Part shown: positions 5,008-51,966 of the stretch, one piece after another
How positions within the stretch are numbered: position 1 is the stretch's first letter
How the letters are laid out: the number at the start of each line of letters is the position of its first letter
Assembly (NCBI GenBank): GCA_050251945.1
Contig: JBFWLW010000003.1
Location: 1 to 64,000, forward strand
DNA: 64,000 bases
Origin: Deferribacterales bacterium
GTDB taxonomy: Bacteria; Chrysiogenota; Deferribacteres; Deferribacterales; Geovibrionaceae
Direction of reading: 5' to 3'
Position numbers and translations under genes: made by a program
The notes under the pieces: generated by a model
Told to the model about the DNA's origin: nothing
Database searches by the model: none
The model's input: only the letters and a program-made list of their open reading frames with translations

Positions 5008-5106
5008 GGCATTTAACTTTTAATTGTCTTTTACATCATGATAAAAAGATAGGTCGGCAGAAATTAAAGGCAAACGGAAAAAGACAGGGGCGGTGTACCC
5101 GCCCCT

Positions 5107-5243: not shown

Positions 5244-5271
5244 GGGGGCGGTGTACCCGCCCCTCTATCAA

Positions 5272-9018: not shown

Positions 9019-10233
9019 TCAGACAGCTTTATACTGCGGAATAGGTTCTTCCGCGATCTGCGGCTGTCCGGCGTTTCTGCCGTGTGTGAAGTAATAGAGA
9101 ACGAGGCAGAGAAGGGATATCACAGCCAGCAGTAAATACATTCCTTTATAACCCGTTGCGGGGATCACAAGTCCCAGAACAAGGGGACCCATGCCGACAC
9201 CCGCATCCACGAAAGCGTAGAAGGTGGAGTTTGCCAGAGCAAGTCTGTCAGGAGGCGTCAGCTTAACGGCTATGGCAAGTCCGCATGACTGCACAACGCC
9301 AATGCCGAAGCCTATAAGCGCCGCAGACGTAAGAACACCCACGGCGCCCTTTGAAGCACCTAAAATACACATCCCTGCCGCAACGGCGACAAAAGACGGG
9401 TACATGGAAACGTTTTCGCCTTTAGAATCAAAAAGTTTTCCGGTATACGGTCTGGAAACCAGTATTACGACGGAATAGACAACAAAGAACATTGAGGCGG
9501 CGGCTGTCAGCCCCTCCTGTTTTGCAAAAGGGGTGATGAACGCCATCACACCGGAATAGCAGAAATACATCACGAGACACACGAAGCTTATGGGTACGGC
9601 GGCAAATTCAAAGTATGATGAAAGTCCGCCGCGCACACCGGCAGGCTGTCTTTCCGCTACAAGAACCTCTTTATCGCGGCTCATGAATACAGTTCCCGCC
9701 AGACATATCACAGCGGCGGCTGTGCAAACCGAAAATATCGTGTCAAACCCGCCGTGCGAGATGATAAACATGCCGATGAACGGTCCCACTGCGGAAGCCA
9801 GAGTGATGCTGAGCAGATAATAGCCCAGCCCTTCGCCCCTGCGTTCGGCAGGGATCATCCCTGCGACTATGGTTCCGACGGCAGTTGCCGCAGCGCCGTA
9901 TGCTATGCCGTGTACCAGCCGCACCGCATAAAGCAGATAGAGGCTGTGGGCTGTGAAATAGAGCAGTACGGTGCCGAGGCAGATAAGCGTACTGTAAAAA
10001 AGCAGATTCCATCTGCCTGTAAAGCTCATCCATTTTCCGCAGAACATTCTGGATATCAGCGCACCGATAACAAACAGTCCGGCGGCAAACCCGCCTTCGC
10101 CTATGGAGCCTCCGATTGATTCGGTGACGTAAAGCGTCATTATCATCATGGGAATATAGTAACCAAGCATCAGAAAGAAATTGACCGATGCTCCCAAAAT
10201 AAAGTCTTTAGTAAAGACTTTCTGAGAATTCAT
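9019..10233 (-). CDS. MFS transporter
   Basis: About 12 hydrophobic segments; GKLFDSKG and PAERRGEGLG MFS motifs. Confidence 0.92.
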   Translation of the reverse strand: MNSQKVFTKDFILGASVNFFLMLGYYIPMMIMTLYVTESIGGSIGEGGFAAGLFVIGALISRMFCGKWMSFTGRWNLLFYSTLICLGTVLLYFTAHSLYLLYAVRLVHGIAYGAAATAVGTIVAGMIPAERRGEGLGYYLLSITLASAVGPFIGMFIISHGGFDTIFSVCTAAAVICLAGTVFMSRDKEVLVAERQPAGVRGGLSSYFEFAAVPISFVCLVMYFCYSGVMAFITPFAKQEGLTAAASMFFVVYSVVILVSRPYTGKLFDSKGENVSMYPSFVAVAAGMCILGASKGAVGVLTSAALIGFGIGVVQSCGLAIAVKLTPPDRLALANSTFYAFVDAGVGMGPLVLGLVIPATGYKGMYLLLAVISLLCLVLYYFTHGRNAGQPQIAEEPIPQYKAV

Positions 10234-10643
10234 ACTGCACAGTGCTCTTTAACTATCATAACAGGCACCTTTGCGTGCTGAACAACGGCATGGCTGACAC
10301 TGCCCAGATATTCCTTAATGCCTGTCAGACCGCGACTGCCCATTATTATCATGTCGCTTTCGGTCTTTTCCGCCTGTTCCAGTATGGCATAGGAAGGAGA
10401 CATTCCGGCTATCATCATGAACTTCTGACGACCCCTGAAATTGTTCAGGATTGTGAGCGCATTCGTCTCAATGTCCATGTCCTGATCGTAAATATCCGCA
10501 AGCTCCGCAGAAGGCGCGCCGACGACAACGTGCATCGCCATTATTTCGGCACCGCAGGTATCGGCCAGAGCAATTGCCCTTCTCAAAGAAAGGTCAGCCG
10601 CCGCGGAACCATCATAAGCAACCAGTATTCTTTTACACCACAT
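10230..10643 (-). CDS. Universal stress protein (UspA family)
   Basis: ILVAYDGS and MGSRGLTGIKEYLGSVSHAVV motifs. Confidence 0.93.
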   Translation of the reverse strand: MWCKRILVAYDGSAAADLSLRRAIALADTCGAEIMAMHVVVGAPSAELADIYDQDMDIETNALTILNNFRGRQKFMMIAGMSPSYAILEQAEKTESDMIIMGSRGLTGIKEYLGSVSHAVVQHAKVPVMIVKEHCAV

Positions 10644-10750
10644 GGTCAGTCCCCCTTATGTTTTGCAAGAATATAACATCCGCCATTAATAATTTGAAAT
10701 ACATATTTCATCATGGTAATATAACTTTCAAGCTATTAGAGAGGTGAACC

Positions 10751-11644
10751 ATGGAGTACATACAGCTTAGATATTTCCTCACTGTTGCTGAACATGAAAA
10801 CATAACCCATGCGGCGAACGAGCTGAATATCAGCCAGCCTTCGCTGAGCAAGACCATTTCCAGACTGGAAGAGAATCTGGGCGTTGAGCTTTTCGAGCGA
10901 AAGGGCAAGAGGATACTTCTGAACGAGTTCGGAAGGATGTTTGAAAAGCGGGTGCGCAGGATATTCGTTGAGATGGATCAGGCGCAGAGGGAGCTTACGG
11001 ACATGGCGAAGCTCCGGAGGAACAGGATAACCATCGGCTCAACAGTTGCGCGGATAATGCCGAAGCTTCTCACGGGTTTTCTAGGCGTACATCCGAACAT
11101 TCTGTTCAACCTGATACAGATAACAAGCCACGAAAAGATACTGAAAAGCCTTTTGGACGGTGAAATAGATCTGAGCGTGTCCATTCTGCCCATAGACGAA
11201 GCGGGAGTGGAATGTCACAGACAGGCATCCGACGAGATACTCATAGCCGTTTCAAAAAACCACAGACTCGCAGGACAAGGTTCCGTGAGCCTGATTGAAA
11301 TAGCAAACGAGCCTCTGGTCTACCATTCCAACGAAACGGGACTGCGCAGGATAACCGATTCGTTTCTGAAAAGGATGAAGATAAACCCGAAGATAGCTTT
11401 TGAATGTACCACGCCGGATATCATATGCGAGCTTGCGGGCAAAGGTTTCGGCAATACGCTGATCCCCGCGTCATGGCTGGATACGGTGGACGTGTCTTCT
11501 CTGTCGTGTCTGCATATAAACGATTTCAAGTGCGAACGGGGCATCTGGCTCTCGTGGGTGACAGACAGATATATGCCTCCGTCAGCCGATGATTTCATAA
11601 CCCACGCAAAGGTGTATTTCTCAAAAGGCTACAGTCTGAAATAG
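10751..11644 (+). CDS. LysR-family transcriptional regulator
   Basis: N-terminal HTH (AANELNISQPSLSKTISRLEENLGVELFER); 297 aa; divergent from usp-MFS. Confidence 0.95.
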   Translation: MEYIQLRYFLTVAEHENITHAANELNISQPSLSKTISRLEENLGVELFERKGKRILLNEFGRMFEKRVRRIFVEMDQAQRELTDMAKLRRNRITIGSTVARIMPKLLTGFLGVHPNILFNLIQITSHEKILKSLLDGEIDLSVSILPIDEAGVECHRQASDEILIAVSKNHRLAGQGSVSLIEIANEPLVYHSNETGLRRITDSFLKRMKINPKIAFECTTPDIICELAGKGFGNTLIPASWLDTVDVSSLSCLHINDFKCERGIWLSWVTDRYMPPSADDFITHAKVYFSKGYSLK

Positions 11645-11653
11645 CATCAAAAA

Positions 11654-11684
11654 TTGGTACCCTCCGATTTCGCTGATCTGGACC
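11654..11684 (+). promoter_or_regulatory. Putative MocR operator
   Basis: TTGGTAC (11654) and CTGGACC (11678), 24-bp period, upstream of the yeeE/yedE genes. Confidence 0.55.
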
Positions 11685-11745
11685 TTTCAATAAAGCCGTT
11701 TATTGAGCAAAATTAATCAGAACAGCTCAGCAAAGGGGAGGAGGG

Positions 11746-12270
11746 ATGATATCACGGGTTATCACCGCCAAAACATGGACACCATGGGTAACAGGAGCGC
11801 TCACCGGAATACTCGCAGCTCTATGCTGTGTATGCGGCAAGACCGTTCTCGGAGCTTCCGGAGGTTTCATAACAGCCGCAAGCTTCATGGGTAAATACCT
11901 GAACATGCCGTGGCAGGATCTTCTTTATTTTAAATTTGTAAAACCGCCCGTGATTTCCTTCCAGCTTATCCAGTTTGCAGGGATGATAGCCGGTTCTTTC
12001 ACTGCGGCATATCTGTCGTCCGATTTCAAATTGCGGCTCACGCCTGACGAGGGCATGGGCGGACGCACAGGCTCTGACATAATCAAAAGATGGGTAACGG
12101 TATTCTTCTGCGGGATACTCATTGAGTTCGGCGCAAGCGTGGCAGGCGGATGCACAAGCGGGCTTGGCATATCAGGCATTATACAGCAGTCACCCGCCGG
12201 CTTTTTATTTTTTGCAACGGCTTTTGCCGCCGCAGTCCCAACTGCTTTCATAGTTAAAATGCTGAGGTGA
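11746..12270 (+). CDS. YeeE/YedE-family sulfur/selenium transporter, half 1
   Basis: WTPWVTG, LGASGG and FGASVAGGCTSG motifs. Confidence 0.88.
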   Translation: MISRVITAKTWTPWVTGALTGILAALCCVCGKTVLGASGGFITAASFMGKYLNMPWQDLLYFKFVKPPVISFQLIQFAGMIAGSFTAAYLSSDFKLRLTPDEGMGGRTGSDIIKRWVTVFFCGILIEFGASVAGGCTSGLGISGIIQQSPAGFLFFATAFAAAVPTAFIVKMLR

Positions 12271-12800
12271 TCTGTATGTTCCTACCGCTTATCATAGGCT
12301 TTCTGTTCGGTTTTCTGCTTCAGAGAACAGGGCTTGGTCACAGCTATAAAGTAACCGGGCAATTTACTTTCAGAGATAATACCATGCTGAAATTCATGGT
12401 ATCAGCCCTTGCCTCCGGCATGATTACCGTATCGTTCTTCACCGACGCAGGCATGCTCTCTCCATCTTCGATGCCCGACACTTATGCCCCCGGCAACATC
12501 ATCGGCGGCGCGATACTGGGCATCGGAATGGCAATAGCCGGAGTTTGCCCCGGCACTCTCATAACAGGAATAGGGCAGGGAAATATAGACTATCTTATTC
12601 CCGGGGTTCTCGGATTTCTCACAGGCGGGGTGCTGTTCGGATACTCTTTTAATCCGCACTTTCTGAAACTCAGTGCGATAGGATTCAGCAAAGGTCTCAC
12701 AATGGCACAGCTCACAGGTGCAGGTCACTGGATATTCTCTTTGGAGATGCTTATAATAGCCGCTTCCGCATTTCTCATCACAAGGAAATTTAATATATGA
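12267..12800 (+). CDS. YeeE/YedE-family transporter, half 2
   Basis: GFLFGFLLQR and GGAILGIGMAIAGVCPGT motifs; start overlaps the upstream stop. Confidence 0.88.
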   Translation: MICMFLPLIIGFLFGFLLQRTGLGHSYKVTGQFTFRDNTMLKFMVSALASGMITVSFFTDAGMLSPSSMPDTYAPGNIIGGAILGIGMAIAGVCPGTLITGIGQGNIDYLIPGVLGFLTGGVLFGYSFNPHFLKLSAIGFSKGLTMAQLTGAGHWIFSLEMLIIAASAFLITRKFNI

Positions 12801-13219
12801 GAACAGTCCTTCTTATTCTCCTGCTCGCAGTATGTACCGAAAGCATCTCCTATTCCTCGTCCGGACAGAAGACCGTCGGCGGCATAAAAACCGCGGTTTC
12901 GGCGCAGGAGCTTTTAAAGATAACGGGAGCGTCCTCAAAATTCGTTTATTACGATCTGCGGACATATCTGGAATACTCTATTGTTCACGTCCCAAAATCA
13001 ATCAATCTGCCCATGCAGTATCTTAAGAACAGAATGGACGAAATAGGCGGTCACGACGAAATAATTCTGATTGCCAATGACGAAAAAGAGGCGGCTCTTG
13101 CCTCGCAGATGATAAAAAGCAGATATCCCGATAAAACCATCCGCTTTCTCGGCGGCGGAATAGGTTCATGGATAAACGCCGGATACCCTATCCAGAACGA
13201 GATACCTCACGGATGCTGA
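12797..13219 (+). CDS. Exported rhodanese-like domain protein (no canonical active-site Cys; ends in Gly-Cys)
   Basis: DLRTYLEY, HVPKSINLP and LGGGIGSW motifs; N-terminal signal-like stretch. Confidence 0.82.
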   Translation: MRTVLLILLLAVCTESISYSSSGQKTVGGIKTAVSAQELLKITGASSKFVYYDLRTYLEYSIVHVPKSINLPMQYLKNRMDEIGGHDEIILIANDEKEAALASQMIKSRYPDKTIRFLGGGIGSWINAGYPIQNEIPHGC

Positions 13220-14441
13220 GAAGCGCGTCGCAGAATCTGTCAACCTCTTCAATACTATTGTACATTCCGAAGCTGATACGCACCATACCAGGGCGTTTCT
13301 GATGCCAGTCCGCAAGGTTTAAAGCAATGTCTGACAATGAGATGTTCAGAAGTTTCTGAACGTAAGGCTGAGCGCAGAAACAACCGCTCCGCACGGCTAT
13401 ATCCGCCGTCGTCGAAAGAGCGGCGGCAAGGTCGGAATGGAAAATATCCCTATAATTAAAGCTTATCACCCCGATACCGTTCCTTTCGGAATAGAGGCGC
13501 ACGCCGTCAATCTGTTCAAGTCTGGCAAGAGCATAATCCGTCAGCTCGGATTCGTGCGCATATATACTCTCCATCCCTTCGGCGGCAAGCGTTTTCATGG
13601 CGGCTCCAAGGGCCACAACACCCATCAGGTTCGGCGTACCTGCTTCAAATTTTGCAGGTGAACCGCCCCACAGAACGCTGTTCTTCGTGACGATATCCAC
13701 AGTGCCGCCGCCGGACATGAACGGAAAAGCGGCTTCAAACGTTCCGGTTCTGCCGACAAGGACTCCTGTTCCAAACGGTGCGTAAAGCTTATGGGCGGAA
13801 AAAGCGAAATAATCTATGCCGTCCGCTGTCATATCAACAGCCTTGTGCGGCGCGAGCTGAGCAGCGTCAACACACAGTTCTGCGCCATATCCGCGAATAA
13901 GACCGGATATCTCTTTAAGCGGATTCGTGAAACCCGTCACGTTGGACGCTCCCGTAACGGACACCATGGCGATATCGCCTCTGTGTTTTTTCAGCAGGTC
14001 TTCCAGACTGTTAAGGTCAAGCCTGCCAGCGCTGTCAGTCAGAGCATGCACAACGTTAAAGCGCCTGCGCCATGGCAAATCGTTTGAATGATGTTCCATC
14101 TCCGTGACAATGACCGTTCTCTTTCTGTCGGGAATTATATTGGCAAGCAGATTAAGGCTTTCGGTGGTGTTTTTCGTGAAAAGGGCGGTGTGCGTGTTTT
14201 CATCCGCGCCCGTGAAACGCAGAACGTCCGCTCTGGTCTGTTCGTAAACGCCGGAACAATGATCCGCACGTCTGCCTGAACCTCTGTGGACAGAGGAATA
14301 GCAGCAGGCGAAATCCCGCACAGCGTCCATAACGCTCACAAGAGGAAGCGTTGTGGCGGCATTATCAAAATTTATACCTTTAACGTCATTGCCGCAGCCA
14401 ACGACAAGACGTCTTAATGAATTGCTATGGTCTTTGCTCAT
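13188..14441 (-). CDS. Class-V PLP-dependent enzyme, SufS/CsdA-like cysteine desulfurase or selenocysteine lyase
   Basis: FDNAATT, EHHSN, DAAQ, FSAHK (PLP Lys), EAGTPN and RSGCFCA catalytic loop. Confidence 0.88.
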   Translation of the reverse strand: MSKDHSNSLRRLVVGCGNDVKGINFDNAATTLPLVSVMDAVRDFACCYSSVHRGSGRRADHCSGVYEQTRADVLRFTGADENTHTALFTKNTTESLNLLANIIPDRKRTVIVTEMEHHSNDLPWRRRFNVVHALTDSAGRLDLNSLEDLLKKHRGDIAMVSVTGASNVTGFTNPLKEISGLIRGYGAELCVDAAQLAPHKAVDMTADGIDYFAFSAHKLYAPFGTGVLVGRTGTFEAAFPFMSGGGTVDIVTKNSVLWGGSPAKFEAGTPNLMGVVALGAAMKTLAAEGMESIYAHESELTDYALARLEQIDGVRLYSERNGIGVISFNYRDIFHSDLAAALSTTADIAVRSGCFCAQPYVQKLLNISLSDIALNLADWHQKRPGMVRISFGMYNSIEEVDRFCDALLSIREVSRSG

Positions 14442-14542
14442 ATGTAAACTTTATTATAACTCTTCATAAAGGCACAGTACCAGATGAAAAATAAGTAAAG
14501 GGGCAAGAATGTATAAAAAACAGGGCGGAATTTTCCGCCCTC

Positions 14543-14682
14543 AGGTTGTTGACAAACTTGTTAAAAGTTAATGAGATTGCCGCGTCAGCCTACAGCTTCC
14601 TCGCAATGACAGCAATTTACGTCTTCGCGAGGAGTGCATGCGACGACGCGATCTCGCATTTTCCTGACTTTGTCATCAGTCT
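14543..14682 (+). mobile_element. MITE-like element, copy 2, flanked by a perfectly inverted 22-bp hairpin duplication
   Basis: Ends aggttgttgacaaact...actttgtcatcagtct; 14521-14542 is the exact reverse complement of 14683-14704. Confidence 0.78.
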
Positions 14683-14776
14683 GAGGGCGGAAAATTCCGC
14701 CCTGTATAAAGGAGGTCGTCGTTTACGCGTTACCTACAGGATCGTTTTATCCTACGCACAGACGATGAGAACAGTA

Positions 14777-16009
14777 TTATTTATTTCCGAATGCGAATTT
14801 ATAAGTAACATAATATCTTGTATCGTTATAATCCTCGCCGCCGTCAACTTTGATATCCGCATATCTGGCTCTTACGCCGAAACCGTCCAGAGCGCCGGAG
14901 AATGCATACTGAACGCTGTAATCCATTTCTGACATATCTTTGCCTGTTGACGCGGGCACATCATAGCCGGCATAGAACACGTATGCGCTGAGACCCTTAA
15001 CTCCGAGTTTGCCGAAGTCGTAGCCGACTTTCAGAGCTTTCGCTTTCTCTTCTGCTCTGCCTGCCGCAAGTATCTGCTGAATAATTGCCTTCTCGTCGCC
15101 CCAAGGAGCCACTATGCCGTCGTCGCCTGTTTTCGCATAGAAAGCGGTGATGTCGAATCCAAGTGCTTTGATACCGCCGCTGATGCCGTACTGGTTAGTG
15201 TCAAGGTCGCCGTTCAGTTCATCGCCCTGAGATTTCTGCCACAGGACAGATGGTTTGGCATAAAGAGTAAAACCGTCGAAATCTTTTGACAGTGCAACTT
15301 TGAAGAATGTCTGATTATAAACGTCCTCCATTGTGTAGTACCATCCCTGAACGTTTGTTTTGACAACATCAACCGGAACGTTGTATGAAGCGCCGAGTAT
15401 GACCATCGCTTTATCGTCGTCAATTGTGGATGCGCCGCCGGGTTCGTTTGCCACAGCCTCGGAAAGCGAGATGAAATGATCGTCGCTCCAGCCCATTGAA
15501 TCTGTAATGTAATATGCGGACAGAGTAAGGTTGTCCACGCTGTTGTTCACAACGGACAAACCTTTGTAGGTTCTGGGAAGCATACGCAGGTCATGCACTT
15601 CCATAAAGGGTGTGCGGATCTCCTGTGCGCCGTATTTCACTACAGTATTAAAATACTCACCCTGAATGTAGTATTCCTGCATACGGCTGAAGCTCTGGTG
15701 ATCGCCGTTGTCATCCTTCTGAAGTGTGCCGTAAACAGTGTGGTGGTCGTTACTGTCAACATCGTTAACGGTACCGAAAGCAGTACCGAAAGAGATGCCT
15801 TTCAGGGGCGCGGTCTTATAATAGAGAAGTCCGCCCACTGCCATATCGCCTCTTGTGCTTGTGCTGCCTTCAAAGTCCCTTGTAAAATCCAGAAATCTTA
15901 TGTCGCCTCTCACAGAACCCTGTGTGAACATGTCTTTAACGTTATCTGCGGCAAAAGCTGTAAATGTAAGCAGCATAGCCGGAATTAACGCTGTAAGTAT
16001 TTTTTTCAT
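14777..16009 (-). CDS. OprD-family outer membrane porin
   Basis: Signal peptide ending AFA; YYKTAP, GAQEIRTP and RMLPRTY motifs; amphipathic beta-strands; aromatic-rich C-terminal strand. Confidence 0.85.
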   Translation of the reverse strand: MKKILTALIPAMLLTFTAFAADNVKDMFTQGSVRGDIRFLDFTRDFEGSTSTRGDMAVGGLLYYKTAPLKGISFGTAFGTVNDVDSNDHHTVYGTLQKDDNGDHQSFSRMQEYYIQGEYFNTVVKYGAQEIRTPFMEVHDLRMLPRTYKGLSVVNNSVDNLTLSAYYITDSMGWSDDHFISLSEAVANEPGGASTIDDDKAMVILGASYNVPVDVVKTNVQGWYYTMEDVYNQTFFKVALSKDFDGFTLYAKPSVLWQKSQGDELNGDLDTNQYGISGGIKALGFDITAFYAKTGDDGIVAPWGDEKAIIQQILAAGRAEEKAKALKVGYDFGKLGVKGLSAYVFYAGYDVPASTGKDMSEMDYSVQYAFSGALDGFGVRARYADIKVDGGEDYNDTRYYVTYKFAFGNK

Positions 16010-16024
16010 ATTATCTCCTTATGT

Positions 16025-16654
16025 CTAACCGAGCATGAGCATCGTAAGGTCTAAAACGCCCTTGAAATACTCTGTTTTCACATGTTTTTGCGCTTCCTCA
16101 TAAAACATGGGGAACCAGCCTTCAATGTGTCTGCCGACAAAACTGTCGAGACATCCGGTCAGTCTGTCGTATTCGTCCGTATTTCCGCAGTTCAGCGCGT
16201 TCACTTTGAGCAGTGCAAGAAAACCTGCAAACTCAAGCGCGATGCCGATATAATCCTGACGGTTTTTAAGGTCTGAATATCCGCAGTAACCTTCGTCCAG
16301 ATAAAGCTGTGTCAGCTCAGAAAAGAGCTGTGTACCCTTGTCGCCGACATAAAGAGCTTCATACGGAGCTTTGGGGCCGTATTCGGGAGATACCCCCCGG
16401 AAAAGCTTTGTCCAGTCTCTCTTAAGATCGAGAAGCGACTCGCTCTCTTCTCCCGCTGCGGTATCCTTTGCATAATCCGTTATCTTTCTGAAACACTCCC
16501 TGAAATCTTCGTCACATATGCCTTCAATGTCGATATTGCGCATTGCGGCAACGCAGTTGAGGTCAGGATTGATGTTATAAAAAGCAGCCAGAAGAGTGAA
16601 AACTTCCGCTTCGTTCTCTGCCGCTATAGTCTTTGTTTCAAGTACACTGCTCAT
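16025..16654 (-). CDS. TorD/DmsD-family molybdoenzyme chaperone
   Basis: WTKLF, PYEALY, QDYIGIALEF (variant of the E-x-x-DH motif) and HIEGW; follows the Mo enzyme genes. Confidence 0.88.
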   Translation of the reverse strand: MSSVLETKTIAAENEAEVFTLLAAFYNINPDLNCVAAMRNIDIEGICDEDFRECFRKITDYAKDTAAGEESESLLDLKRDWTKLFRGVSPEYGPKAPYEALYVGDKGTQLFSELTQLYLDEGYCGYSDLKNRQDYIGIALEFAGFLALLKVNALNCGNTDEYDRLTGCLDSFVGRHIEGWFPMFYEEAQKHVKTEYFKGVLDLTMLMLG

Positions 16655-16707
16655 GTAAACCTCCGGTTCGGTAATGTGCGGCGGTCATCCCGCCGCACCG
16701 TGATTCA

Positions 16708-17316
16708 TCAGTCGATGTAAAAAACCCTCGGTTTTGTGCCTTTTTCGGGCATATAGGGTTTCGGTTTGAATTTCTTGAACATCTTGGAAATTTCGCTTTC
16801 CGGATCGTCCAGATCACCGAATATTCTCGCCACACCTGCGCATGTTGCAACACAGGCAGGGGGAAGACCTTTTTCGCGTCTGGGTGCGCAGAAAGTACAT
16901 TTGTCAACAGTGTTGACAACGTGCTCTTTCATCCTCTCAGCTTCATATTGGTTCTGTTTGCCGACTTCGCTCCAGTATGTGGGGGTCTCCTCGCTATTGA
17001 AGTATCTTGCGCCGTAAGGACATGCTTCCATGCACATCTGGCATCCGATACATTCGGAAGCTGTAACCTGAACTGTTCCGTCCGCGAGCTTTTTGGAAGC
17101 CTTTGTAGGGCATACCTTAACGCAGGGTGCATTGTCGCAGTGGTTGCATATCAGGGGCATGTATTCCATATGAGCGTTGGGAAACTTACCCTTCTCAATG
17201 GAAAGCGTCTTTGTCCAGAATGTTCCCGGAGGCGTTGCATTTGCGACTTTACATGCTACCGTGCATCCCTGACAGGCATAGCATCTTCTTTTGTCTATGA
17301 TCATTGCGTATCTCAT
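16708..17316 (-). CDS. 4x[4Fe-4S] electron-transfer subunit (DmsB/PsrB/NrfC type)
   Basis: CYACQGCTVAC, CNHCDNAPCVKVCP, CIGCQMCMEACP and CTFC...PACVATC. Confidence 0.95.
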   Translation of the reverse strand: MRYAMIIDKRRCYACQGCTVACKVANATPPGTFWTKTLSIEKGKFPNAHMEYMPLICNHCDNAPCVKVCPTKASKKLADGTVQVTASECIGCQMCMEACPYGARYFNSEETPTYWSEVGKQNQYEAERMKEHVVNTVDKCTFCAPRREKGLPPACVATCAGVARIFGDLDDPESEISKMFKKFKPKPYMPEKGTKPRVFYID

Positions 17317-17328
17317 TGCATCCTCCCG

Positions 17329-20046
17329 TTACGCTTTGTAGATTCTGACCGGAACAGAGTTTGAAACACCGATTGCTACAGCGCAGCAGTCGGATATTTT
17401 CGCGTTGGTCAGTTTGTTGTACATCGGATATGAAGCGGCTTTTTTGCCGAGACTGTCTACAAGACGTCCCAGAGCGCCGGCAACACCCACAACATCGGGG
17501 AAGATAAGCTCGGTAACGTGCACCTCGCCTTTAATCTTTCCGTTCTCAGATTCAACCCAGATGGTGTCTCCCTCTTTAATGCCTTTCTCTCTGGCAGTCT
17601 TTGTGTTGATGGAGAGTTTGCCGTATGTGGGGTCAAAAGTTCCGCTTGCCTCGTTCAGATAGGGCATCTGGTCGTTACCGCCGATCCTCATGGGGGAGGT
17701 GGGGGTTTTCCAGTTAATGGAGATCATGTCATATTTGTCGCCCTTCTTAACTTCTGTAAGTTTTTTCGGACGCCATTTGATGACTGCTTCATAATATTGA
17801 AGCTGGTCTTCCATGTCGAAATCGGGGATGTAAACTTTATCTTTGTATTCAGTGAAGAACTTACGCAGACCGTCTCCTGATTTTTTAAGGCGCTCGAAAT
17901 AGATGGGGTGTCTTGTCTCGCCCTTTTTGAACCATGAAGAGTTGTATGCATCCGCAGCAGCAAGATCCATCACCAGCATACCTTCTTTCTTCATCTCTTC
18001 CAGAGACTTGTGGAAATATGCGCGAACGCCTTTGTCCCATATCTCGCGGATGCTGTAGCGTTTGCCGGGAACAAGCTGATCTTTTTTCTCAAGCTGGGCA
18101 AAAGTGATCTCACCAAGCATTACGCCTGTTTTGTTTACGTTGGCGTTGAAGTCGTCGATCATTCCGATGCGTTCGCAAAGTTCGATAATGATATCCTGAG
18201 GCTGTCTGGAATCATAGACAGGCGTAAAGGGTTCTCTGTACATCATTACTTTTTTGGTGACGGTATCTTTTGTATAAACGTCGAACGCGCCTTCATAGCA
18301 GTTTACGGATTCTTTTTCGAGAAGCGCGTGGCAGGGCAGCAGTACGTTTGACATATGCGCCATTTCATCATAGTGATAAGCCACTGTCGCCGTGAAAGGA
18401 ATCTTAGCTACCGAATCGGCAACCATATAAGGCTCAGTTGTACTTGCGATGGGGTTGCTGCCCACAACAAGAAGAGCGTCTATTTCATATTCCAGCCCGT
18501 ATTTTTTGGGGTCTGCCGCAACTCTGTATGCCAGCGTGGGCAGAGTGTGCTTGTGCGGGAAATATTCGGAAAGGTTGACGTGCTGGGGCGGATACACAGG
18601 GTCTTTGTAGCGCGCTTCGCCTTTGGGTGCAACAACGCCGTCCTGATCTGGGCTGAGGTATGCTCCGCGCTGTGTTCCGAGCATGCCGCCGGGTACGTCG
18701 ATGGAACCCACCAGCATGTTCATGATTTTGGTCATAAGGTCTGCGGGAACGCCGTCTCTCATGTTTTTGATACCGCGTTTTCCCTCGCATACGGACGTTC
18801 TTTTCGGCAGAACAAGTTTCTGTCCCTTACCGTTCACCAGCTCAATTGTTTCGCCGATGCTTGCATGTTCGATAAAGTCTTTTGCGATCTCGCGTATCTT
18901 TTTCGCAGGAATGCCGGATTTTTTAGAAGCCCATTCGGGAGTATTAGTTTTGAATCCCTTTTTAACAAGAACAAATGACGCGGTGGTTTTTACACCGTTG
19001 ACCATGACGTTCTCTGCGTAGATATCGGGGTCTTTAAGGGTTTTATCGTCAAAAGATTTAATTTTACCGTCGGCTGCATCGCGGATCTGCGGTTTGCCGT
19101 CTGTTCCTCTGGCATAGTAGCCGTCCGGTCCTATCAGATAGGGACTGTTTGTGCGCCATGCGAGGAAATCGAAGTCAAGTTTTTTTACTTCATACATCAT
19201 ACTGTGGATAACGCCCATCATGAACGCCAGCTCTCCGCCGGGTCTGATCGGCACCCACTCTGTTTTGGATGCGTCGGGACCGCAGTGAGGGTCGACACAT
19301 ACAACTTTGATGTCTTTTTCGTATACTATTCTGTCAAGAAGACCTCTTACCCCGCCGTCGGAAGACGCAATACCCATGCCAAGGTTCATCCCCATTGCAA
19401 GGATATATTTTGCATATGTCGCATCCGGTTTAACACCGGGGAAAACACCGTGGACAAGGTCGGAAGCATAGTGAAGAACGCAGAGAGTTCCGTTACTTTT
19501 AATATAGTTGGGCGTACCGTACGCACCGGCGAAATAGAACATGAAAGTACAGAAGAAATCCATGTCGCCGAAACCGACCTGATAAATGAAGCGTCTGGGG
19601 TCTCTCTCGCGAACCTGTTTAAGAACACCAGCAGTGGTGCTCATAGCCTCTTCCCATGATATCTCAACCCACATAGGGTCTTCGGAAAGACCTTTCTTCG
19701 GGTTGGTTCTTTTCATGGGTGCTTTTACTCTGTAAGGGTTATAAAGGTTCTGGATAATAGACTGACCCTTAGCGCAGAGCGCGCCTTTGCTTGTGGGGGT
19801 ATTGGGGTTCCCCATGATCTCCACAACCACACCGTTTTTAACTTTGTAAAGGTTAGGGCATGTACCTCTCATACACATACGGCAGTGTCCAAAGTGCCAC
19901 CCGTCTTTAAGAAGCTGTTCGGTTCTGTCCATCGCCGCCGCTTCGGCCGCATGTGCAGGGCTGAGATTTATCCCCATCAGCGATGCGGCACCGGCAATAC
20001 CGGCAGCCTTTAAAACAGATCTTCTGCTAAGCGTAATCTGTCTCAT
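17329..20046 (-). CDS. Tat-exported molybdopterin oxidoreductase, catalytic subunit with N-terminal [4Fe-4S], substrate unknown
   Basis: SRRSVLK Tat motif; CRMCMRGTC...LCAKG Fe-S motif; GTPN...GTLC probable Cys Mo ligand; C-terminal MGD-binding domain. Confidence 0.9.
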   Translation of the reverse strand: MRQITLSRRSVLKAAGIAGAASLMGINLSPAHAAEAAAMDRTEQLLKDGWHFGHCRMCMRGTCPNLYKVKNGVVVEIMGNPNTPTSKGALCAKGQSIIQNLYNPYRVKAPMKRTNPKKGLSEDPMWVEISWEEAMSTTAGVLKQVRERDPRRFIYQVGFGDMDFFCTFMFYFAGAYGTPNYIKSNGTLCVLHYASDLVHGVFPGVKPDATYAKYILAMGMNLGMGIASSDGGVRGLLDRIVYEKDIKVVCVDPHCGPDASKTEWVPIRPGGELAFMMGVIHSMMYEVKKLDFDFLAWRTNSPYLIGPDGYYARGTDGKPQIRDAADGKIKSFDDKTLKDPDIYAENVMVNGVKTTASFVLVKKGFKTNTPEWASKKSGIPAKKIREIAKDFIEHASIGETIELVNGKGQKLVLPKRTSVCEGKRGIKNMRDGVPADLMTKIMNMLVGSIDVPGGMLGTQRGAYLSPDQDGVVAPKGEARYKDPVYPPQHVNLSEYFPHKHTLPTLAYRVAADPKKYGLEYEIDALLVVGSNPIASTTEPYMVADSVAKIPFTATVAYHYDEMAHMSNVLLPCHALLEKESVNCYEGAFDVYTKDTVTKKVMMYREPFTPVYDSRQPQDIIIELCERIGMIDDFNANVNKTGVMLGEITFAQLEKKDQLVPGKRYSIREIWDKGVRAYFHKSLEEMKKEGMLVMDLAAADAYNSSWFKKGETRHPIYFERLKKSGDGLRKFFTEYKDKVYIPDFDMEDQLQYYEAVIKWRPKKLTEVKKGDKYDMISINWKTPTSPMRIGGNDQMPYLNEASGTFDPTYGKLSINTKTAREKGIKEGDTIWVESENGKIKGEVHVTELIFPDVVGVAGALGRLVDSLGKKAASYPMYNKLTNAKISDCCAVAIGVSNSVPVRIYKA

Positions 20047-20122
20047 TAATGCACCTCGTTATAGAATTAAAAGAACCAGCTGTTTCTGACGGAAATATCG
20101 CAGATAATTTGTGTAGTAAAAA

Positions 20123-20153
20123 GGTCCAGAAAATGAAATTAACCAGCGCCCAG
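20123..20153 (-). promoter_or_regulatory. Putative MocR operator
   Basis: On the minus strand CTGGGCG-N17-CTGGACC, 24-bp period. Confidence 0.55.
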
Positions 20154-20319
20154 AACATAAGACAAAAACAGTCCGCTTATGCCGTAATTCAAACAGATAT
20201 ATAACAAATAATATTAATATACAAGATAATTACATCGTTATGTAAAAAACAGATGCACGCATGCCGGACAGGCTTTTTTTGTGAGATCATTTTGAGATAA
20301 GACCTGTTTTTTTGTCAGA

Positions 20320-20381
20320 CTGGTCTCTATCTTTATACCCGAACTAGACCCTTTACAATAACGTACGGTGAGCAATATAAT
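20320..20381 (+). promoter_or_regulatory. Putative MocR operator plus sigma70 promoter of the regulator
   Basis: CTGGTCT (20320) and CTAGACC (20344), 24-bp period, followed by TTTACA-N18-TATAAT. Confidence 0.55.
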
Positions 20382-20440
20382 AACGATATACACAATTATT
20401 ATGATTCAAAGCCATGTGTAGGCTACATGAGGTTAAAAAA

Positions 20441-21865
20441 ATGCTGTTTAGCTGGAAACCGGATACAAGCCTTAAATCACCGATGTACATGCAGCTTGCG
20501 GATTATTTCAGAGCGAAGATAAAAATGGGCGACCTGAAAAACGGTACGAAACTGCCCGGCAGAGAGACGCTGATGGAATCGCTGAACGTCAGTAAAACGA
20601 CGCTGATATCGGCTTTTTCACAATTGCAGAGAGAGGGGCTTCTGACATCTCACCCGAAATCGGGCTATTTCATCAACTACAACCTTGAAAACGGCAGGGT
20701 GAACTGGAACGACTATACCCGCATGGCAAGGCATAAGACCAGTGTGTACGAATACAGGCACTGGGGCGAATCCGACGGATTGACGAATTTCAGCCTCAGC
20801 AGCGATTTTCACATGGAAAAATATCTTGTTGACGCAATGCGGGGAGCTTCCGAAAGGATAAGTGCAGGCAAAACAGCACCGGAGCTGACTAAATACGGAC
20901 TCACTTCACTGCGGGAATCCATCAGAAAACACTTGGAAAAACTGGGGATAAAAACTAAGACGGAGAACATCTTGATCTCTTCCGAAACCATACAGAGACT
21001 GTTCCACGTTTACGAATCGCTCCTTAACGCCAACTCGAACTTCCTTTATGAAAACACCAACATAATAAACACCATATCGAACATTCACTCCATCGGTATG
21101 AACATGATACCTATAAAGATGGATAAACACGGAATGTCCGCAGTTGAGCTTGAAAAGAAGCTTATCAAATGCAAATGTTGTCCCATAGTACACGTCGACC
21201 CGACCGATCAGGCGCCCACGGGCGTTGTCATGAGCAAACGCCGCCGTCAGGAGATTATGAACATTATACAGAAATACCGCGTTCCGCTGGTCGAGATAGA
21301 CCACTCCAGCAATATATGGCACGACAGACCTGCGCTGAATCCGCTGAAATCCATCGACAGGAACGATAACATAATCTATTTGGGCAGCCTGCTGAAATGC
21401 CACCCGTATGATTTTCAGCTTTCGTGGATAGTCGCGGACAGATTCATTATAGAACACCTGAGCAACGTGTTCATACAGACCGGCGTGAAGCCTAACTTTA
21501 CCATGCAGCTGCTTGTCGACGAGATGATAAGAAGCGGAAACATCTACAAAATGACAGAGGACATCAGCAATTTTATACGCAGCAGAAAGGAACTGACCCT
21601 CGCTCTCTGCGAAAAGCACCTGAAAAGCAGAGGCTTCTGGATCGAGAAGAACTGCAACTTCCACTTCTGGCTGGACTTCCCCGACGTCAATTTCAAGAAC
21701 ATCTTCTCCAAAAGGGAACTGATAACAAACATCTATCCGGGCTACTTTTTCGACAAGAACGACACAAGCCACATACTTCTGTGCCCTGCATCAATTCAGG
21801 AACAGGACATCGAAAAAACCATCATCCGGCTGAAAGACCTTGTGAATGAAAATTACCGCGGATGA
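20441..21865 (+). CDS. MocR/GabR-family regulator (GntR HTH plus PLP-dependent aminotransferase-like domain)
   Basis: PMYMQLAD...GTKLPGRE...LNVSKTT wHTH; DQAPTG and YLGSLLK; start 20441 chosen from the GAGG RBS (20414 is an alternative). Confidence 0.9.
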   Translation: MLFSWKPDTSLKSPMYMQLADYFRAKIKMGDLKNGTKLPGRETLMESLNVSKTTLISAFSQLQREGLLTSHPKSGYFINYNLENGRVNWNDYTRMARHKTSVYEYRHWGESDGLTNFSLSSDFHMEKYLVDAMRGASERISAGKTAPELTKYGLTSLRESIRKHLEKLGIKTKTENILISSETIQRLFHVYESLLNANSNFLYENTNIINTISNIHSIGMNMIPIKMDKHGMSAVELEKKLIKCKCCPIVHVDPTDQAPTGVVMSKRRRQEIMNIIQKYRVPLVEIDHSSNIWHDRPALNPLKSIDRNDNIIYLGSLLKCHPYDFQLSWIVADRFIIEHLSNVFIQTGVKPNFTMQLLVDEMIRSGNIYKMTEDISNFIRSRKELTLALCEKHLKSRGFWIEKNCNFHFWLDFPDVNFKNIFSKRELITNIYPGYFFDKNDTSHILLCPASIQEQDIEKTIIRLKDLVNENYRG

Positions 21866-23040
21866 ATTTTGAGGAAATACGCCGCTGCCGCGCCCGCCAG
21901 AAGCACGGGAACAAGTGAGTAGGAAGCCATCTCCCAGCCTGCCTTTTCCGCTATGGCGCCGAAGAGGAATGGTCCAAGACACATGCCGAGATACTGACCG
22001 AATGCAACGATAGACATACCTACCCCTGCCGCTTTCGGGTCTTTAACTATCTCCGGCACAGCCGAAAAGGTCGCAGGCGCTATCATCCCCGCCGCAGAAC
22101 CAACAAGAAACAGACAAACGGGTATCATAACTCCGCTCACTTGATACGGTATCACTATTACAAAACTCAGAACAAGGAAGCTGAAGAAAAGTACGCCTCT
22201 GTAAACCCTGAGCTTATGTATCAGAACCCCCGCAACAGGAGATGCCACCAGCGAAGAAATGAGAAAAAAACTTGTGATCGCAGACGCGCGCTCTTTTGAA
22301 TATCCGAACTCGGATTCCAGATATACGGGCGTGAACGAACAGACAGCAATAACCATTATATTGAATATCATGAATACCAGAGCAAGTATCCAGACCCCGG
22401 GTGTTTTGTAGACTTCTTTGATGCTGACATGATGTTCCCCGCCTTCATAATAGTGCGGCGCCTCATCAATGCGGGGCATACGGAAAGGGTATATCATAAG
22501 AACAAGTATGAACGCCGTATATATAGTGGTCATCCCCCATACGGATTTCCAGCCCAGCCAGCCGTTAAGAAGCGGAGCCACAAGGAGCATCACTATACTG
22601 CCCAGAGAAACCCACGTCGACCAGATGCCCATAGGCATTCCGCGTTTTTCAGGCGGGAACCATGCCGATATTACAGCGGGCGCGACAACGGATATCAGGC
22701 ACATTCCGATTCCCTCTATCACCCTGCTGGTAAGCATCGAAGCAGTATCAACGGCAAACCAGCCGATGAACGAACCGACGAAAAGGGAAGCAACAGCTAT
22801 TATCCCCGAAAGTTTAAGCCCGACCCTGTCAACAATATAACCGGAAGGCAGAGATATGAATATCCCCACCAGTGCGAAGACAGACATCATAAGTCCGGCT
22901 TTTGAAAGGTCTATGCCTAGTTCCGCCATAAGTATTGTCATAACCGGGGGAACCTTGAACTGATTCAAAGGCGCAGAGATACTCGCCAGATAGATAGTGG
23001 CAAGTATTATCAGCGGGAAGCTGAATTTATTTTTTAGCAT
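21853..23040 (-). CDS. MFS transporter (CynX/NimT-like)
   Basis: About 12 TM segments; GYIVDRVG motif A; WFPPEKRG. Confidence 0.9.
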   Translation of the reverse strand: MLKNKFSFPLIILATIYLASISAPLNQFKVPPVMTILMAELGIDLSKAGLMMSVFALVGIFISLPSGYIVDRVGLKLSGIIAVASLFVGSFIGWFAVDTASMLTSRVIEGIGMCLISVVAPAVISAWFPPEKRGMPMGIWSTWVSLGSIVMLLVAPLLNGWLGWKSVWGMTTIYTAFILVLMIYPFRMPRIDEAPHYYEGGEHHVSIKEVYKTPGVWILALVFMIFNIMVIAVCSFTPVYLESEFGYSKERASAITSFFLISSLVASPVAGVLIHKLRVYRGVLFFSFLVLSFVIVIPYQVSGVMIPVCLFLVGSAAGMIAPATFSAVPEIVKDPKAAGVGMSIVAFGQYLGMCLGPFLFGAIAEKAGWEMASYSLVPVLLAGAAAAYFLKIHPR

Positions 23041-23206
23041 TTTATCCCCACATAGAACAAAAAAGAATATTTGTGTACCGACATTATAGTTATATTTAAT
23101 TATTTGTCCAGATTTCTACTGTCAGTTCAACGTTAAATTTGCCAATATCAGCAGATATGTAATATATTACTCACCGCACACGAAAACAGATACGAGGAGG
23201 CATGTT

Positions 23207-49968: not shown

Positions 49969-51855
49969 TTATGTAAGTTTAAACACTCCTGCGGTCTCCT
50001 TAAGGTCATCCGAAAGAGTATTGAGTTCGTTCGCAATATCCACAAGTCCGTTGAGCTGTTCAGCAGCCTTTGCCGATGCCGCTGATACGTCGGATATATT
50101 GGCGCTGATCTCCGATGTCGCCGCCGCCTGTTCCTCTGACGCGGCAGCCATCTGCGTTACCATGTCAAGGGTTACTGAAGCCGCAGAGATTATCTCATCC
50201 AATTTTCCGTTTGCCTTCTGCGCGACCCCTTTTCCCTCGACCACCATCTGAACACCCTGACGGATGCTCTCTGTGACCACTTTCGATTCGCCGTGTATCT
50301 CCGATATCATCCGGGATATCTCCCCTGTGGCGGTCTGTGTTCTCTCCGCAAGCTTACGCACCTCATCGGCGACAACCGCAAAACCTCTTCCGTGTTCTCC
50401 CGCCCGTGCCGCCTCTATCGCCGCGTTCAGCGCCAGCAGATTCGTCTGGTCTGCGATATCGTTAATGACGGTGGTTATCTCGTCTATCTGACCGACAGAA
50501 GCCGCCATCTTTTCAATCACCTGTGCCGAGCGGCTCACGGATTCGTTTATTTTATTCATCATTTCAACGGTATCAACAACTGAATGTTGTCCCTCCCTTG
50601 CACTGTTTTTGGTTATCTGCGCCTGAGAGGCAGCAGTGTTGGCGTTCTCCGCCACCTGCATCACAGTTGTGTTCATCTCCTCAATGGCACCCGCAAGGCT
50701 CAGAACGTCCGCCGACTGTTTGTTCAGCTCGCCGGATATGATATTTATATTCTTAGTTATCTCCGTACTCTGAACGGCAGCACCGTTTGAAAGCCCGTTT
50801 ATTTTTTTAAGTATCAGAGTAAGTTTTTCTATAAATCTGTTAAAGAACAATCCCGCTTCACTAAGTTCGTCTTTGCCTTTGTCGTCCAGCCTTTTCGTAA
50901 GATCGCCCTCGCCCTGTGCGATGTCCCTGAACATGCTTACCAGTCTGTTCAGCGGTTTAAAACCGTAAACCAGAACACCTGTCAGCACAGCCGCACTTAA
51001 CAGCAGCATGAAGATGCCTATCGAAACCGCCGCAAGAGTCTGCTGTTTAAGAGGTTCCAGAATTTCATCCTTATCTATCGTAAAAGCGCAGACCCAGCCG
51101 TTCTCCGGAACCACGGAATAGTAGAGCACCTTCTCTATTCCATCGAAGGTATATTCGTATTTGCCACTGGGAGAGCTTGACACAAGTTCTCTGAAACCTG
51201 GCATCTTGTCAAATGCGTTCGCCTTGAGGATAAGTTCCTTATTCGGGTTGGCGACCATTATCCCGTCCTTGTCTATGATAAAACTGTAACCGGATTTTCC
51301 GTATTTCTTCTGTACGCGTTCCATGAGCGAATCAATATTCATGGAACTGCTGATTGCACCTGCAAAAGAGCCGTTCACCTTTACGGGAGCATATATGACC
51401 ACCGTGGGAACCTTGTACTGTTTATGGATGAAAGGGGATGAAATGCTTGTCCGTTCAGTTTTCTTGACATCCAGATACCATTCCAGAGAATAGGGATCCC
51501 AGTCTGCGGGAGCAATCCAGCCTTCCGATTGAACATATCTGCCGCCGGTATCGAAAAGAACAAAAAACGAACGGAAATCATCCCTGCCGTTAAAAGGCTT
51601 AAGAGCTTTCATCACCCCTTCGTCCGTAATTCCTTCAAACCCAACACTCGCCGCGATTCCTTCCATAACGCTCTTATGCTCTTGTACCCACATGTTTATA
51701 GTGTGCGACAGGATATCGGTCTCTTTTTTAAGCCCGTCCTCCGTCATGTTTACCTGTATGTTGTAGGTTTTTCTTCCGGTCTGTAAAATGATAATAAAAA
51801 CAGTCAGCACCATCACGGACAGCGCCGCAAAGATTATCTTGGACTTAAGCTTCAC
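49969..51855 (-). CDS. Methyl-accepting chemotaxis protein (dCache sensor, HAMP)
   Basis: QTNLLALNAAIEAARAGEHGRGFAVVADEVRKLAERT; GGAGG RBS before GTG 51855. Confidence 0.95.
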   Translation of the reverse strand: MKLKSKIIFAALSVMVLTVFIIILQTGRKTYNIQVNMTEDGLKKETDILSHTINMWVQEHKSVMEGIAASVGFEGITDEGVMKALKPFNGRDDFRSFFVLFDTGGRYVQSEGWIAPADWDPYSLEWYLDVKKTERTSISSPFIHKQYKVPTVVIYAPVKVNGSFAGAISSSMNIDSLMERVQKKYGKSGYSFIIDKDGIMVANPNKELILKANAFDKMPGFRELVSSSPSGKYEYTFDGIEKVLYYSVVPENGWVCAFTIDKDEILEPLKQQTLAAVSIGIFMLLLSAAVLTGVLVYGFKPLNRLVSMFRDIAQGEGDLTKRLDDKGKDELSEAGLFFNRFIEKLTLILKKINGLSNGAAVQSTEITKNINIISGELNKQSADVLSLAGAIEEMNTTVMQVAENANTAASQAQITKNSAREGQHSVVDTVEMMNKINESVSRSAQVIEKMAASVGQIDEITTVINDIADQTNLLALNAAIEAARAGEHGRGFAVVADEVRKLAERTQTATGEISRMISEIHGESKVVTESIRQGVQMVVEGKGVAQKANGKLDEIISAASVTLDMVTQMAAASEEQAAATSEISANISDVSAASAKAAEQLNGLVDIANELNTLSDDLKETAGVFKLT

Positions 51856-51966
51856 CGTTTCCCTCCCGAACAATCAATAATTGTTGCATATCTGTGAACA
51901 GTATAGAAAAAAGCAGATGTAAAAAAAGTCCCAGACAGGCAAAATTCATAGAGCCCAGATATCAAA

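Follow-up and report, generated by a model that had tools for sequence, protein, structure and literature searches.

We examined a 64,000-nucleotide stretch of a Deferribacterales bacterium genome (NCBI GenBank assembly GCA_050251945.1, contig JBFWLW010000003.1, positions 1 to 64,000 of the forward strand; hereafter the window), in which a molybdenum (Mo) enzyme exported by the twin-arginine translocation (Tat) pathway is encoded beside a cysteine desulfurase, a split YeeE/YedE membrane protein, a rhodanese-fold protein and a MocR-family regulator. Our preferred reading, to which we assign a probability of roughly 0.45, is that these genes form a co-regulated module in which the exported Mo enzyme would receive sulfur at its metal centre through an outward relay that installs or restores a terminal sulfido ligand. 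The system itself is probably real, conserved and co-regulated, and it joins known protein families in a combination that we did not find in print. A literature search that most subscription papers and all supplements lay outside returned no description combining YeeE, rhodanese, cysteine desulfurase and molybdopterin oxidoreductase, and nothing on this clade of Mo enzymes.

A first-pass annotation of the window had proposed the families and the adjacency of these genes. Profile matches to Pfam and NCBIfam place all eleven genes of the locus where that annotation had put them and in the same families. By its named relatives, the window belongs with Seleniivibrio, Denitrovibrio and Geovibrio in the Deferribacterales. 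The core genes are as follows (PLP, pyridoxal 5′-phosphate; bisPGD, bis-pyranopterin guanine dinucleotide; MFS, major facilitator superfamily).

11746..12270, + strand: YeeE/YedE half 1, PmpA-like, with a GGCT motif (Cys136) kept in orthologs (PF04143)
12267..12800, + strand: YeeE/YedE half 2, PmpB-like, with a GxCPG motif (Cys94) seen in the alignment (PF04143)
12797..13219, + strand: exported rhodanese-fold carrier with a hydrophobic N-terminus, no catalytic loop Cys and a P-x-G-C tail ending in Cys140 (PF00581)
13188..14441, − strand: SufS-like cysteine desulfurase without signal peptide, with the PLP Lys in SAHK and RSGCFCA placing Cys356 at the SufS catalytic position (PF00266)
14777..16009, − strand: outer-membrane porin of the OprD family whose gene ends the Mo operon, its position kept in G002, G006, G008, G010 and G011 (PF03573)
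16025..16654, − strand: TorD/DmsD-type private chaperone (PF02613)
16708..17316, − strand: four-[4Fe-4S] electron-transfer subunit with 16 Cys and no signal peptide
17329..20046, − strand: Tat-exported Mo/W-bisPGD catalytic subunit of an uncharacterised clade, with FS0 cluster Cys55/58/63/91, Mo-ligand Cys189 and His192
20414..21865, + strand: MocR-family regulator with a degenerate PLP site, its start probably the second Met, as in orthologs (PF00392 and PF00155)
21853..23040, − strand: MFS transporter, linked by neighbourhood, its regulon membership unproven (operator half-site only)

The Mo operon thus runs from the catalytic subunit gene (moA) through the Fe-S subunit and TorD to OprD, and profile scans of the locus detected neither an NrfD/PsrC-type membrane anchor in this operon nor a TusA/YeeD-like acceptor in the locus. 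The desulfurase, the YeeE pair and the carrier are referred to here as the sulfur cassette.

That these genes constitute one conserved and probably co-regulated system, as had been proposed, is supported by co-occurrence, by neighbourhood and by operator comparisons. The survey covered 68 Deferribacterota genomes for the Mo enzyme and the desulfurase and 41 for the first YeeE half (G000 is the window's own genome; other G- and L-numbers denote compared genomes and loci). The Mo enzyme was present in 9/68 genomes (one partial) and the desulfurase in 6/68, all within those nine, while the first YeeE half occurred in the same six genomes among its 41. None of the 59 genomes without the Mo enzyme carried the desulfurase cassette; other YeeE-family genes were found in seven further genomes without the enzyme. 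The genes are linked in four arrangements: the window order, shared by G002 and G006; the order MFS, sufS, yeeE, rhodanese, mocR and moA in G008; mocR, sufS and yeeE on a short contig in G026, whose Mo enzyme belongs to a sister subclade; and, in G011, a cassette lying ~16 kb from the Mo operon with its operators still present. The MFS gene adjoins the module in G002, G006, G008 and G010, and MFS homologs also stand beside other members of the MocR subfamily. The desulfurase was not found in the enzyme-bearing genomes G009, G010 and G049 (86% complete) or in four enzyme-bearing Burkholderiales genomes (three labelled Sutterella), nor was a YeeE-family gene found in G009, G010, G068 and G069. 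The cassette is thus an accessory of the enzyme, and several of the cassette-free orthologs are close to the window enzyme (79% identity in G010, 62% in Sutterella, and also G009).

Evidence for co-regulation comes from a predicted operator, a direct repeat with a period of 24. De novo enumeration over eight mocR-moA spacers of other genomes, with four shuffles as control, recovered a CTGG-type hexamer at period 24 in 5–6/8 spacers, compared with 3/8 at best in the shuffles. The first operator pattern had been made by eye after the window was seen, and the matrix was then rebuilt from the de novo seed; both matrices were trained solely on spacers of other genomes and used to rank 6.15 million positions of the window genome. 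With the first matrix the sites before mocR, moA, yeeE and sufS ranked 1, 2, 4 and 7, and with the de novo-seeded matrix 1, 2, 9 and 4, the latter with chance values of ~1e-4 and 2e-4 for the two sulfur-gene promoters. Orthologous sulfur-gene promoters carried the site in 7/7 cases tested (chance 4e-5 to 0.017), including both in G011. The predicted operators and the further gene that they implicate are listed here.

11654..11684, + strand: predicted MocR operator (direct repeat, period 24) before the yeeE-rhodanese unit, also before the ortholog in G002, G006 and G011
14477..14507, − strand: predicted MocR operator before the desulfurase, strong in G002 and G008 and less so in G006 and G011
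20123..20153, − strand: predicted MocR operator of the Mo operon, genome rank 2 with both matrices
20320..20350, + strand: predicted MocR operator before mocR, just upstream of the −35 box, genome rank 1 with both matrices
49969..51873, − strand: dCache chemoreceptor (Pfam), likely a further regulon member with an operator upstream
51928..51958, − strand: predicted MocR operator before the chemoreceptor, genome rank 6 with the first matrix and 3 with the de novo-seeded one

The predicted operators lie at or just upstream of −35 boxes; for mocR the promoter-like sequence is TTTACA-18-TATAAT at 20352. Sites of MocR activators are likewise found at or just upstream of −35 (PMC5320631), and a conserved direct-repeat operator near the −35 box of its targets is what would be expected of a MocR regulon. 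The shared operator noticed in the first-pass annotation therefore stands beyond chance at mocR, the Mo operon, sufS and yeeE, with one qualification: the MFS promoter has a single half-site over its −35 box at a chance-level score (P ~0.44), which does not support the transporter as a full member of the regulon. A similar repeat precedes the chemoreceptor orthologs in G002 and, at period 23, in G011. The chemoreceptor gene is itself located downstream of genes for a split-Soret-like cytochrome c (52695–53771) and a cytochrome b (52037–52708), all on the − strand; these cytochromes might conceivably act as electron donors to the anchor-less Mo enzyme. A further operator match at C2:152731 was left out of the regulon, as it precedes a Nudix-like gene and not the nearby iscS-type gene.

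The regulator combines a GntR-type DNA-binding domain with an aminotransferase-like domain, and the annotation had suggested that it senses an amino compound through PLP. This is unlikely, since the PLP site is degenerate. Aligned with solved aminotransferases and GabR, the pyridinium Asp is replaced by Ile295 and the phosphate Arg by Gln335, and the carboxylate Arg is missing, while Lys328 is present; across the aligned members of the subfamily the Asp is kept in 0/22 and the Schiff-base Lys in 8/22. We take these residues to have the roles generally assigned to them in fold-type I enzymes, and on the residues the protein was not classed as a PLP-dependent MocR. Among 12 loci around other members of the subfamily, four carry DmsA-like Mo enzymes or Mo enzymes of other clades (L148, L149, L154, L155). 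Flavocytochrome c reductases or their homologs are found at four (L146, L147, L148, L155), a gene resembling reductive dehalogenases at L144, where the same operator recurs (L144:10508), and a lone TorD at L140. This PLP-degenerate subfamily of Deferribacterota thus looks like a controller of periplasmic reductases, and the regulator therefore says little for a sulfur-containing amino compound.

The Mo enzyme has a twin-arginine signal and an invariant four-Cys FS0 motif, and its Cys189 aligns with the Mo ligand of PsrA and ArrA, as expected of a Cys-ligated, Tat-exported member of the DMSO reductase (MopB) superfamily. No NCBIfam family was matched over cut-off, and homologs bear names of the MopB_phenylacetyl-CoA family. 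In a FastTree tree of 82 sequences, from which one short open reading frame (ORF; L120) had been dropped, the enzyme falls in a clade of 51–100% identity with sources among Deferribacterales, Sutterella and Arcobacter-like bacteria (support 1.0), so that the earlier view of an enzyme outside characterised clades is supported by profile and tree alike. Genes that failed both to co-occur in other genomes and to be co-induced, or an enzyme in a characterised clade with an unrelated substrate, had been named as outcomes that would speak against the annotation, and neither was encountered. The putative PadB loci L064 and L066, which owe that identity to a neighbouring phenylacetate-CoA ligase gene and not to comparison with an authentic PadB, belong to another subclade and share 28% identity with the window enzyme; it is, to judge by its sequence, a distant relative of PadB and not PadB. 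Assignment to PadB was rejected on this identity, the separate subclade, the Tat signal and the lack of a coenzyme A (CoA) ligase or anchor in the locus. Equally, PsrA/PhsA/SrrA was rejected at 192 bits against a PhsA cut-off of 694, with no NrfD-type anchor in the operon, and ArrA at 120 bits against 1600. Among solved structures, Arr and Psr are the nearest relatives. A fold search, in which identity to 6CZ7 was ~20%, gave only generic Arr, Psr, Fdh and Nap matches, and the Atlas only generic names. The single-chain model has a mean predicted local distance difference test (pLDDT) value of 78.8, and since it falls below 50 at residues 160–167 and 186–189, no substrate can be read from it.

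Several lines of context bear on the substrate. Relatives without a Tat signal adjoin genes for 2-oxoacid dehydrogenase, UbiD, tripartite ATP-independent periplasmic (TRAP) transporters or phenylacetate-CoA ligase, and these neighbours suggest organic substrates for the family. Respiratory reductases of gut anaerobes, Sutterella among them, typically combine a signal peptide with an adjacent regulator (bioRxiv 10.1101/2022.12.26.521950), and the window enzyme is probably a respiratory reductase of a small organic compound. The PadB pathway has been described (PMC9765128), the available part of PMC10100899 holds no mention of phenylacetyl, and an Eggerthella 21-dehydroxylase cluster includes FdhD (PMC11835702). 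The window genome encodes a second module of this kind (G000:C4:180239–186776) with a MocR, a 61% identical Mo enzyme, an Fe-S subunit, TorD, a porin of a different type (PF13557) and its own operator; no sulfur genes lie beside it, and it could use the cassette of the window. More distantly, L057 to L061 form a tight clade of Burkholderiales Tat Mo enzymes with ~30% identity to the window enzyme, accompanied by TorD and a polyferredoxin and located near genes for arsenite oxidase or flavocytochrome sulfide dehydrogenase.

As for the sulfur genes, the desulfurase is of the SufS type (group II): SAHK and RSGCFC align with solved SufS at the PLP Lys and at the catalytic Cys of RxGHHC, and RxGCFCA is kept in 113/120 top homologs. 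It was not assigned to SufS proper of the SUF pathway (TIGR01979, 306 against a cut-off of 475 bits), and no suf genes occur in the locus. The YeeE/YedE protein is split as in PmpAB into two halves with a conserved Cys each, which match Cys293 and Cys91 of TsuA, both essential there (PMC11582611). The rhodanese is not catalytic by its sequence, as all 5/5 orthologs lack the loop Cys where canonical relatives have CRSGNRS; a P-x-G-C tail is found in the 5/5 aligned orthologs and in five close homologs examined, and Tyr57, Pro66, Arg79, Pro137, Gly139 and Cys140 are invariant. In 5/5 orthologs TGA follows the Gly-Cys end, and we considered a C-terminal selenoprotein that would read through to Gly-Cys-selenocysteine. 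It was rejected, as no selA, selB or selD scored over cut-off in the cassette-bearing genome G008 (100% complete) and TGA was the commonest stop after Cys in long ORFs (13/20). By the same result, selenium, which the annotation had allowed as an alternative to sulfur, is not required.

A predicted complex connects the carrier with the Mo enzyme. The model of the two proteins scored 0.85 (runs 0.85, 0.85 and 0.81) and the best of three controls 0.44; the mark used was reached by 116/157 solved and 2/215 mismatched pairs, counts that hold roughly with the alignments used. Contact agreement between runs was at least 85%, and the pLDDT of the partners at least 84. The predicted interface comprises enzyme residues 183, 189, 192, 202–203 and 500–501 and carrier residues 133 and 135–140; it includes Cys189, His192 and His500 of the enzyme, the last six residues of the carrier and the carrier invariants listed above, so that the tail is predicted to reach the Mo-ligand Cys189. 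Enzyme residues 148–150, 173–179 and 481–488 and carrier residues 56–62 and 66–70 also belong to the predicted interface. The model supports binding, without showing binding or the direction of sulfur transfer. By entry name, no such complex was seen among 16 solved relatives of the rhodanese and 41 of the enzyme, the other chains of these entries being uninspected. With this model, maturation of the Mo site by the sulfur genes, which the first-pass annotation had mentioned as a fallback, now appears the stronger reading.

The proposed mechanism can be outlined as follows. The MocR-type protein would bind the substrate, likely without PLP, and activate mocR, the Mo operon, sufS, yeeE and the chemoreceptor through the 24-bp direct repeat; the operator sites are a computational observation, while activation and ligand binding are inferred. 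OprD would admit the substrate, whose reduction would take place in the periplasm, a location shown by the signal sequence, with electrons presumably arriving through the [4Fe-4S] subunit in the reductive direction. Meanwhile the desulfurase, by the chemistry of its family, would form a persulfide from cysteine, the YeeE pair would hand this sulfur outward over Cys136 and Cys94, and the carrier would take it up on Cys140, its tail reaching in to the Mo next to Cys189. Outward flow of sulfur strikes us as rather probable: a desulfurase is a sulfur source, which makes this direction the simplest reading, and a cytoplasmic cysteine desulfurase would fit it better than inward flow. The sulfido ligand appears the most likely purpose because the cassette is dispensable, the substrates look organic, the anchor of polysulfide respiration is missing and a sulfido ligand is labile to O2; the ligand of enzymes with the bis-MGD cofactor (MGD, molybdopterin guanine dinucleotide) is lost on exposure to O2 and can be reinserted chemically (PMC13653126). 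An accessory role in repair fits a cassette that enzyme-bearing genomes can do without. A gene for FdhD was detected in the Sutterella genome G068, which is without the cassette, and in none of G000, G008, G010 and G026.

Several observations weigh against this proposal. The YeeE proteins described as characterised in PMC11582611 are importers, and no sulfido repair in vivo is known in bacteria (PMC13653126); the sulfido ligand on this Mo enzyme is itself hypothetical. The control that reached 0.44 retained the carrier, whose tail may therefore be sticky in general and find other pockets, and the predicted interface residues are no better conserved in cassette-bearing than in cassette-free orthologs. 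The genomes compared are kin, and the co-occurrence counts are therefore not independent. G010 (100% complete) has the 79% ortholog with neither cassette nor FdhD. ExtH-like rhodaneses in ext-Psr operons of G000 and G011 end in Gly-Cys as well, and such tails may for that reason carry substrate sulfur. Lastly, G026 has a second desulfurase and split YeeE among ext-type genes of selenite or sulfur reduction, with no Mo enzyme on the 5.7-kb contig.

Sulfur-trafficking genes recur beside related Mo enzymes. At L090 (35% identity) and L105 (a 30% relative), which belong to different subclades, the operon runs after TorD into a non-orthologous sulfur cassette made up of a seleno-YedE-like protein in two pieces, a lipoprotein that has a Cys at its end or close to it, and a desulfurase of TIGR01977; the two cassettes are 67–82% similar to each other and hence count as one recruitment. 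The 60% relative at L077 has a triple rhodanese and NapC after TorD. Among 44 family loci, sulfur-trafficking genes lay in the fetched flank of 10/25 Tat-bearing and 0/19 non-Tat loci, a count that leaves out L094 as a SUF operon (its desulfurase stands with SufB-like genes and is not a cassette) and in which the L117 cassette, at a distance of 6.5–9.4 kb, may have no connection, L072 probably encodes a Tat protein whose start is cut off, and several loci are near-duplicates or have less than 3 kb of flank on one side. We tentatively extend the proposal, as a possibility that falls short of an even chance, to a trans-envelope relay in which desulfurase, split YeeE and a swinging-arm rhodanese would install or repair the sulfido ligand of a folded periplasmic Mo-bisPGD enzyme; it would be the first bacterial route of repair in vivo, recruited at least twice in the family and serving an undescribed respiratory reductase.

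The alternative that survives best is the pathway of the first-pass annotation, in which an organosulfur compound is the enzyme's substrate and its sulfur ends up on Cys140, import follows through the YeeE pair, and the sulfur or amino-acid product is dealt with inside by the SufS-like enzyme and the MFS transporter. We consider it unlikely, if still a serious contender. A carrier tail placed in the substrate funnel would be just as compatible with pick-up of product, and import would agree with the known YeeE proteins (PMC11582611). The window half-site also resembles the TauR half-site CTGGACYTAA (PMC5320631), a likeness that probably reflects the DNA-binding domain and not the ligand, because the repeat also goes with related MocRs that lie before unrelated reductases (L144, L155); a taurine/TauR pathway was rejected, with no Xsc over cut-off in 5/5 genomes. 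In G006 and G011, the sulfur cassette is directly adjoined by a metNIQ-type ATP-binding cassette (ABC) transporter operon (L024:15966–18544 and L070:6631–9163; two genera, in differing orientations), whereas in G000 metNIQ is on another contig and the locus lacks a TusA/YeeD-like acceptor. The case for inward trafficking of sulfur or selenium from an amino compound is weakened by the degenerate PLP site, the lack of selD and selAB in G008 and the close cassette-free orthologs.

Quite unlikely, in our view, is the alternative that the carrier-bound persulfide is the substrate, with cysteine sulfur being exported as sulfane, which the Mo site would then reduce to H2S in the manner of Psr and Sud, for cysteine-linked respiration or to prime respiration of elemental sulfur. 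Sud is a rhodanese carrier that accompanies Psr-type systems. The proximity of Arr and Psr among solved structures, the NrfD anchors of L090 and L105 and the Gly-Cys tails of ExtH-like rhodaneses beside a Psr-type enzyme in the window genome all agree with this alternative, as does a Geobacter gene of the ext cluster type that encodes a polysulfide reductase (PMC13510729). At L156 (G000:C2:338000–351049), the genes of an ext-type operon, which encode an ExtH-like rhodanese ending in Gly-Cys, ExtI, ExtM and ExtN/O, are continued by those for a Psr/Phs-type Mo enzyme and its Fe-S and NrfD-like subunits; L157 is laid out in the same way. The second cassette of G026 (L069, G026:C74) sits in such an operon, between ExtN/O and ExtI genes and without the small rhodanese; by analogy, this copy too may work for a Mo enzyme, though in the role of substrate carrier. 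On the other side, the window operon has no NrfD/PsrC anchor, its 60% relative uses NapC/NirT, which would suit acceptors of higher potential, and the window genome already has Psr-type enzymes. The enzyme moreover stays at 192 of 694 bits for PhsA and groups with relatives of organic substrates, and a porin, a chemoreceptor and a regulator of its own suggest that its substrate is organic and comes from outside. That the sulfur genes are a separate unit of the same island, unrelated to the Mo enzyme, is very improbable: the cassette is missing from 3/9 enzyme-bearing genomes, stands beside ext genes too and comes from six related genomes, but the shared operator is kept even 16 kb apart, the genes are joined in four arrangements, no cassette occurs in the 59 genomes without the enzyme, and direct contact is predicted by the complex model.

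Comparison with known systems places the preferred reading, a sulfur relay to the Mo site, more precisely. PadBCD, the phenylacetyl-CoA:acceptor oxidoreductase, shares the wider family, the Cys-ligated Mo-bisPGD, the FS0 cluster and a [4Fe-4S] partner, and L064 and L066 fall in the same large clade as the window enzyme. PadB is inactivated by cyanide. The window enzyme differs by its subclade and active-site loop at 28% identity, no Tat motif was detected in L064 or L066, and the window locus is without CoA ligase or membrane anchor; a CoA-ester substrate would be implausible in the periplasm. PsrABC and PhsA with the rhodanese carriers Sud and ExtH resemble it in Tat export, in the aligned Cys ligand of PsrA, in an exported rhodanese partner and, for the ExtH-like protein of the window genome, in the Gly-Cys tail, whereas the window enzyme lies below the PhsA cut-off, lacks the NrfD anchor, has a single-domain carrier without loop Cys and is co-regulated with a desulfurase and a YeeE pair. 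In the sulfuration of the molybdenum cofactor by FdhD/IscS and XdhC/NifS, a cysteine desulfurase likewise supplies sulfur to a carrier acting for a molybdenum centre (PMC13653126), but these act in the cytoplasm before cofactor insertion, while the window has an exported carrier and a putative membrane relay, and the model docks the carrier on the folded enzyme. PmpAB, TsuA(YeeE)-TsuB and SoxT are matched in the two halves with the cysteines corresponding to TsuA Cys293 or Cys91 (PMC11582611); the window differs in having no adjacent TusA-like TsuB, a PLP desulfurase as partner and a proposed outward direction. TauR and other MocRs share the GntR winged helix, the aminotransferase-like domain, the position divergent from the target and direct repeats with a CTGGAC-like half-site, in contrast to which the window regulator has degenerate PLP residues, no taurine genes and periplasmic reductases as targets.

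Two neighbouring features were also observed. Between oprD and sufS, at ~14520–14700, there is a repeated intergenic element containing GC-rich inverted repeats; the region 5020–5271 has a similar stretch near 5050–5200, recognised by shared shadow-ORF text. Adjoining yeeE, at 9019–11644, a LysR gene and a Usp and MFS pair transcribed away from it are kept only in G002 among the loci compared and have no operator; they are probably unrelated to the module.

Sulfido ligation of bis-MGD enzymes beyond formate dehydrogenase and repair in vivo in bacteria are both named as open questions in a 2026 review (PMC13653126). For both, the locus provides a small, defined system: donor, channel and carrier, the last with a single reactive cysteine and a docking site that the model predicts. 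If the outward relay is true, it would be a case of export by YeeE. The enzyme clade extends to gut Sutterella and to relatives of Arcobacter, and the co-regulated chemoreceptor and regulator offer two ligand-binding domains with which its substrate may be found.

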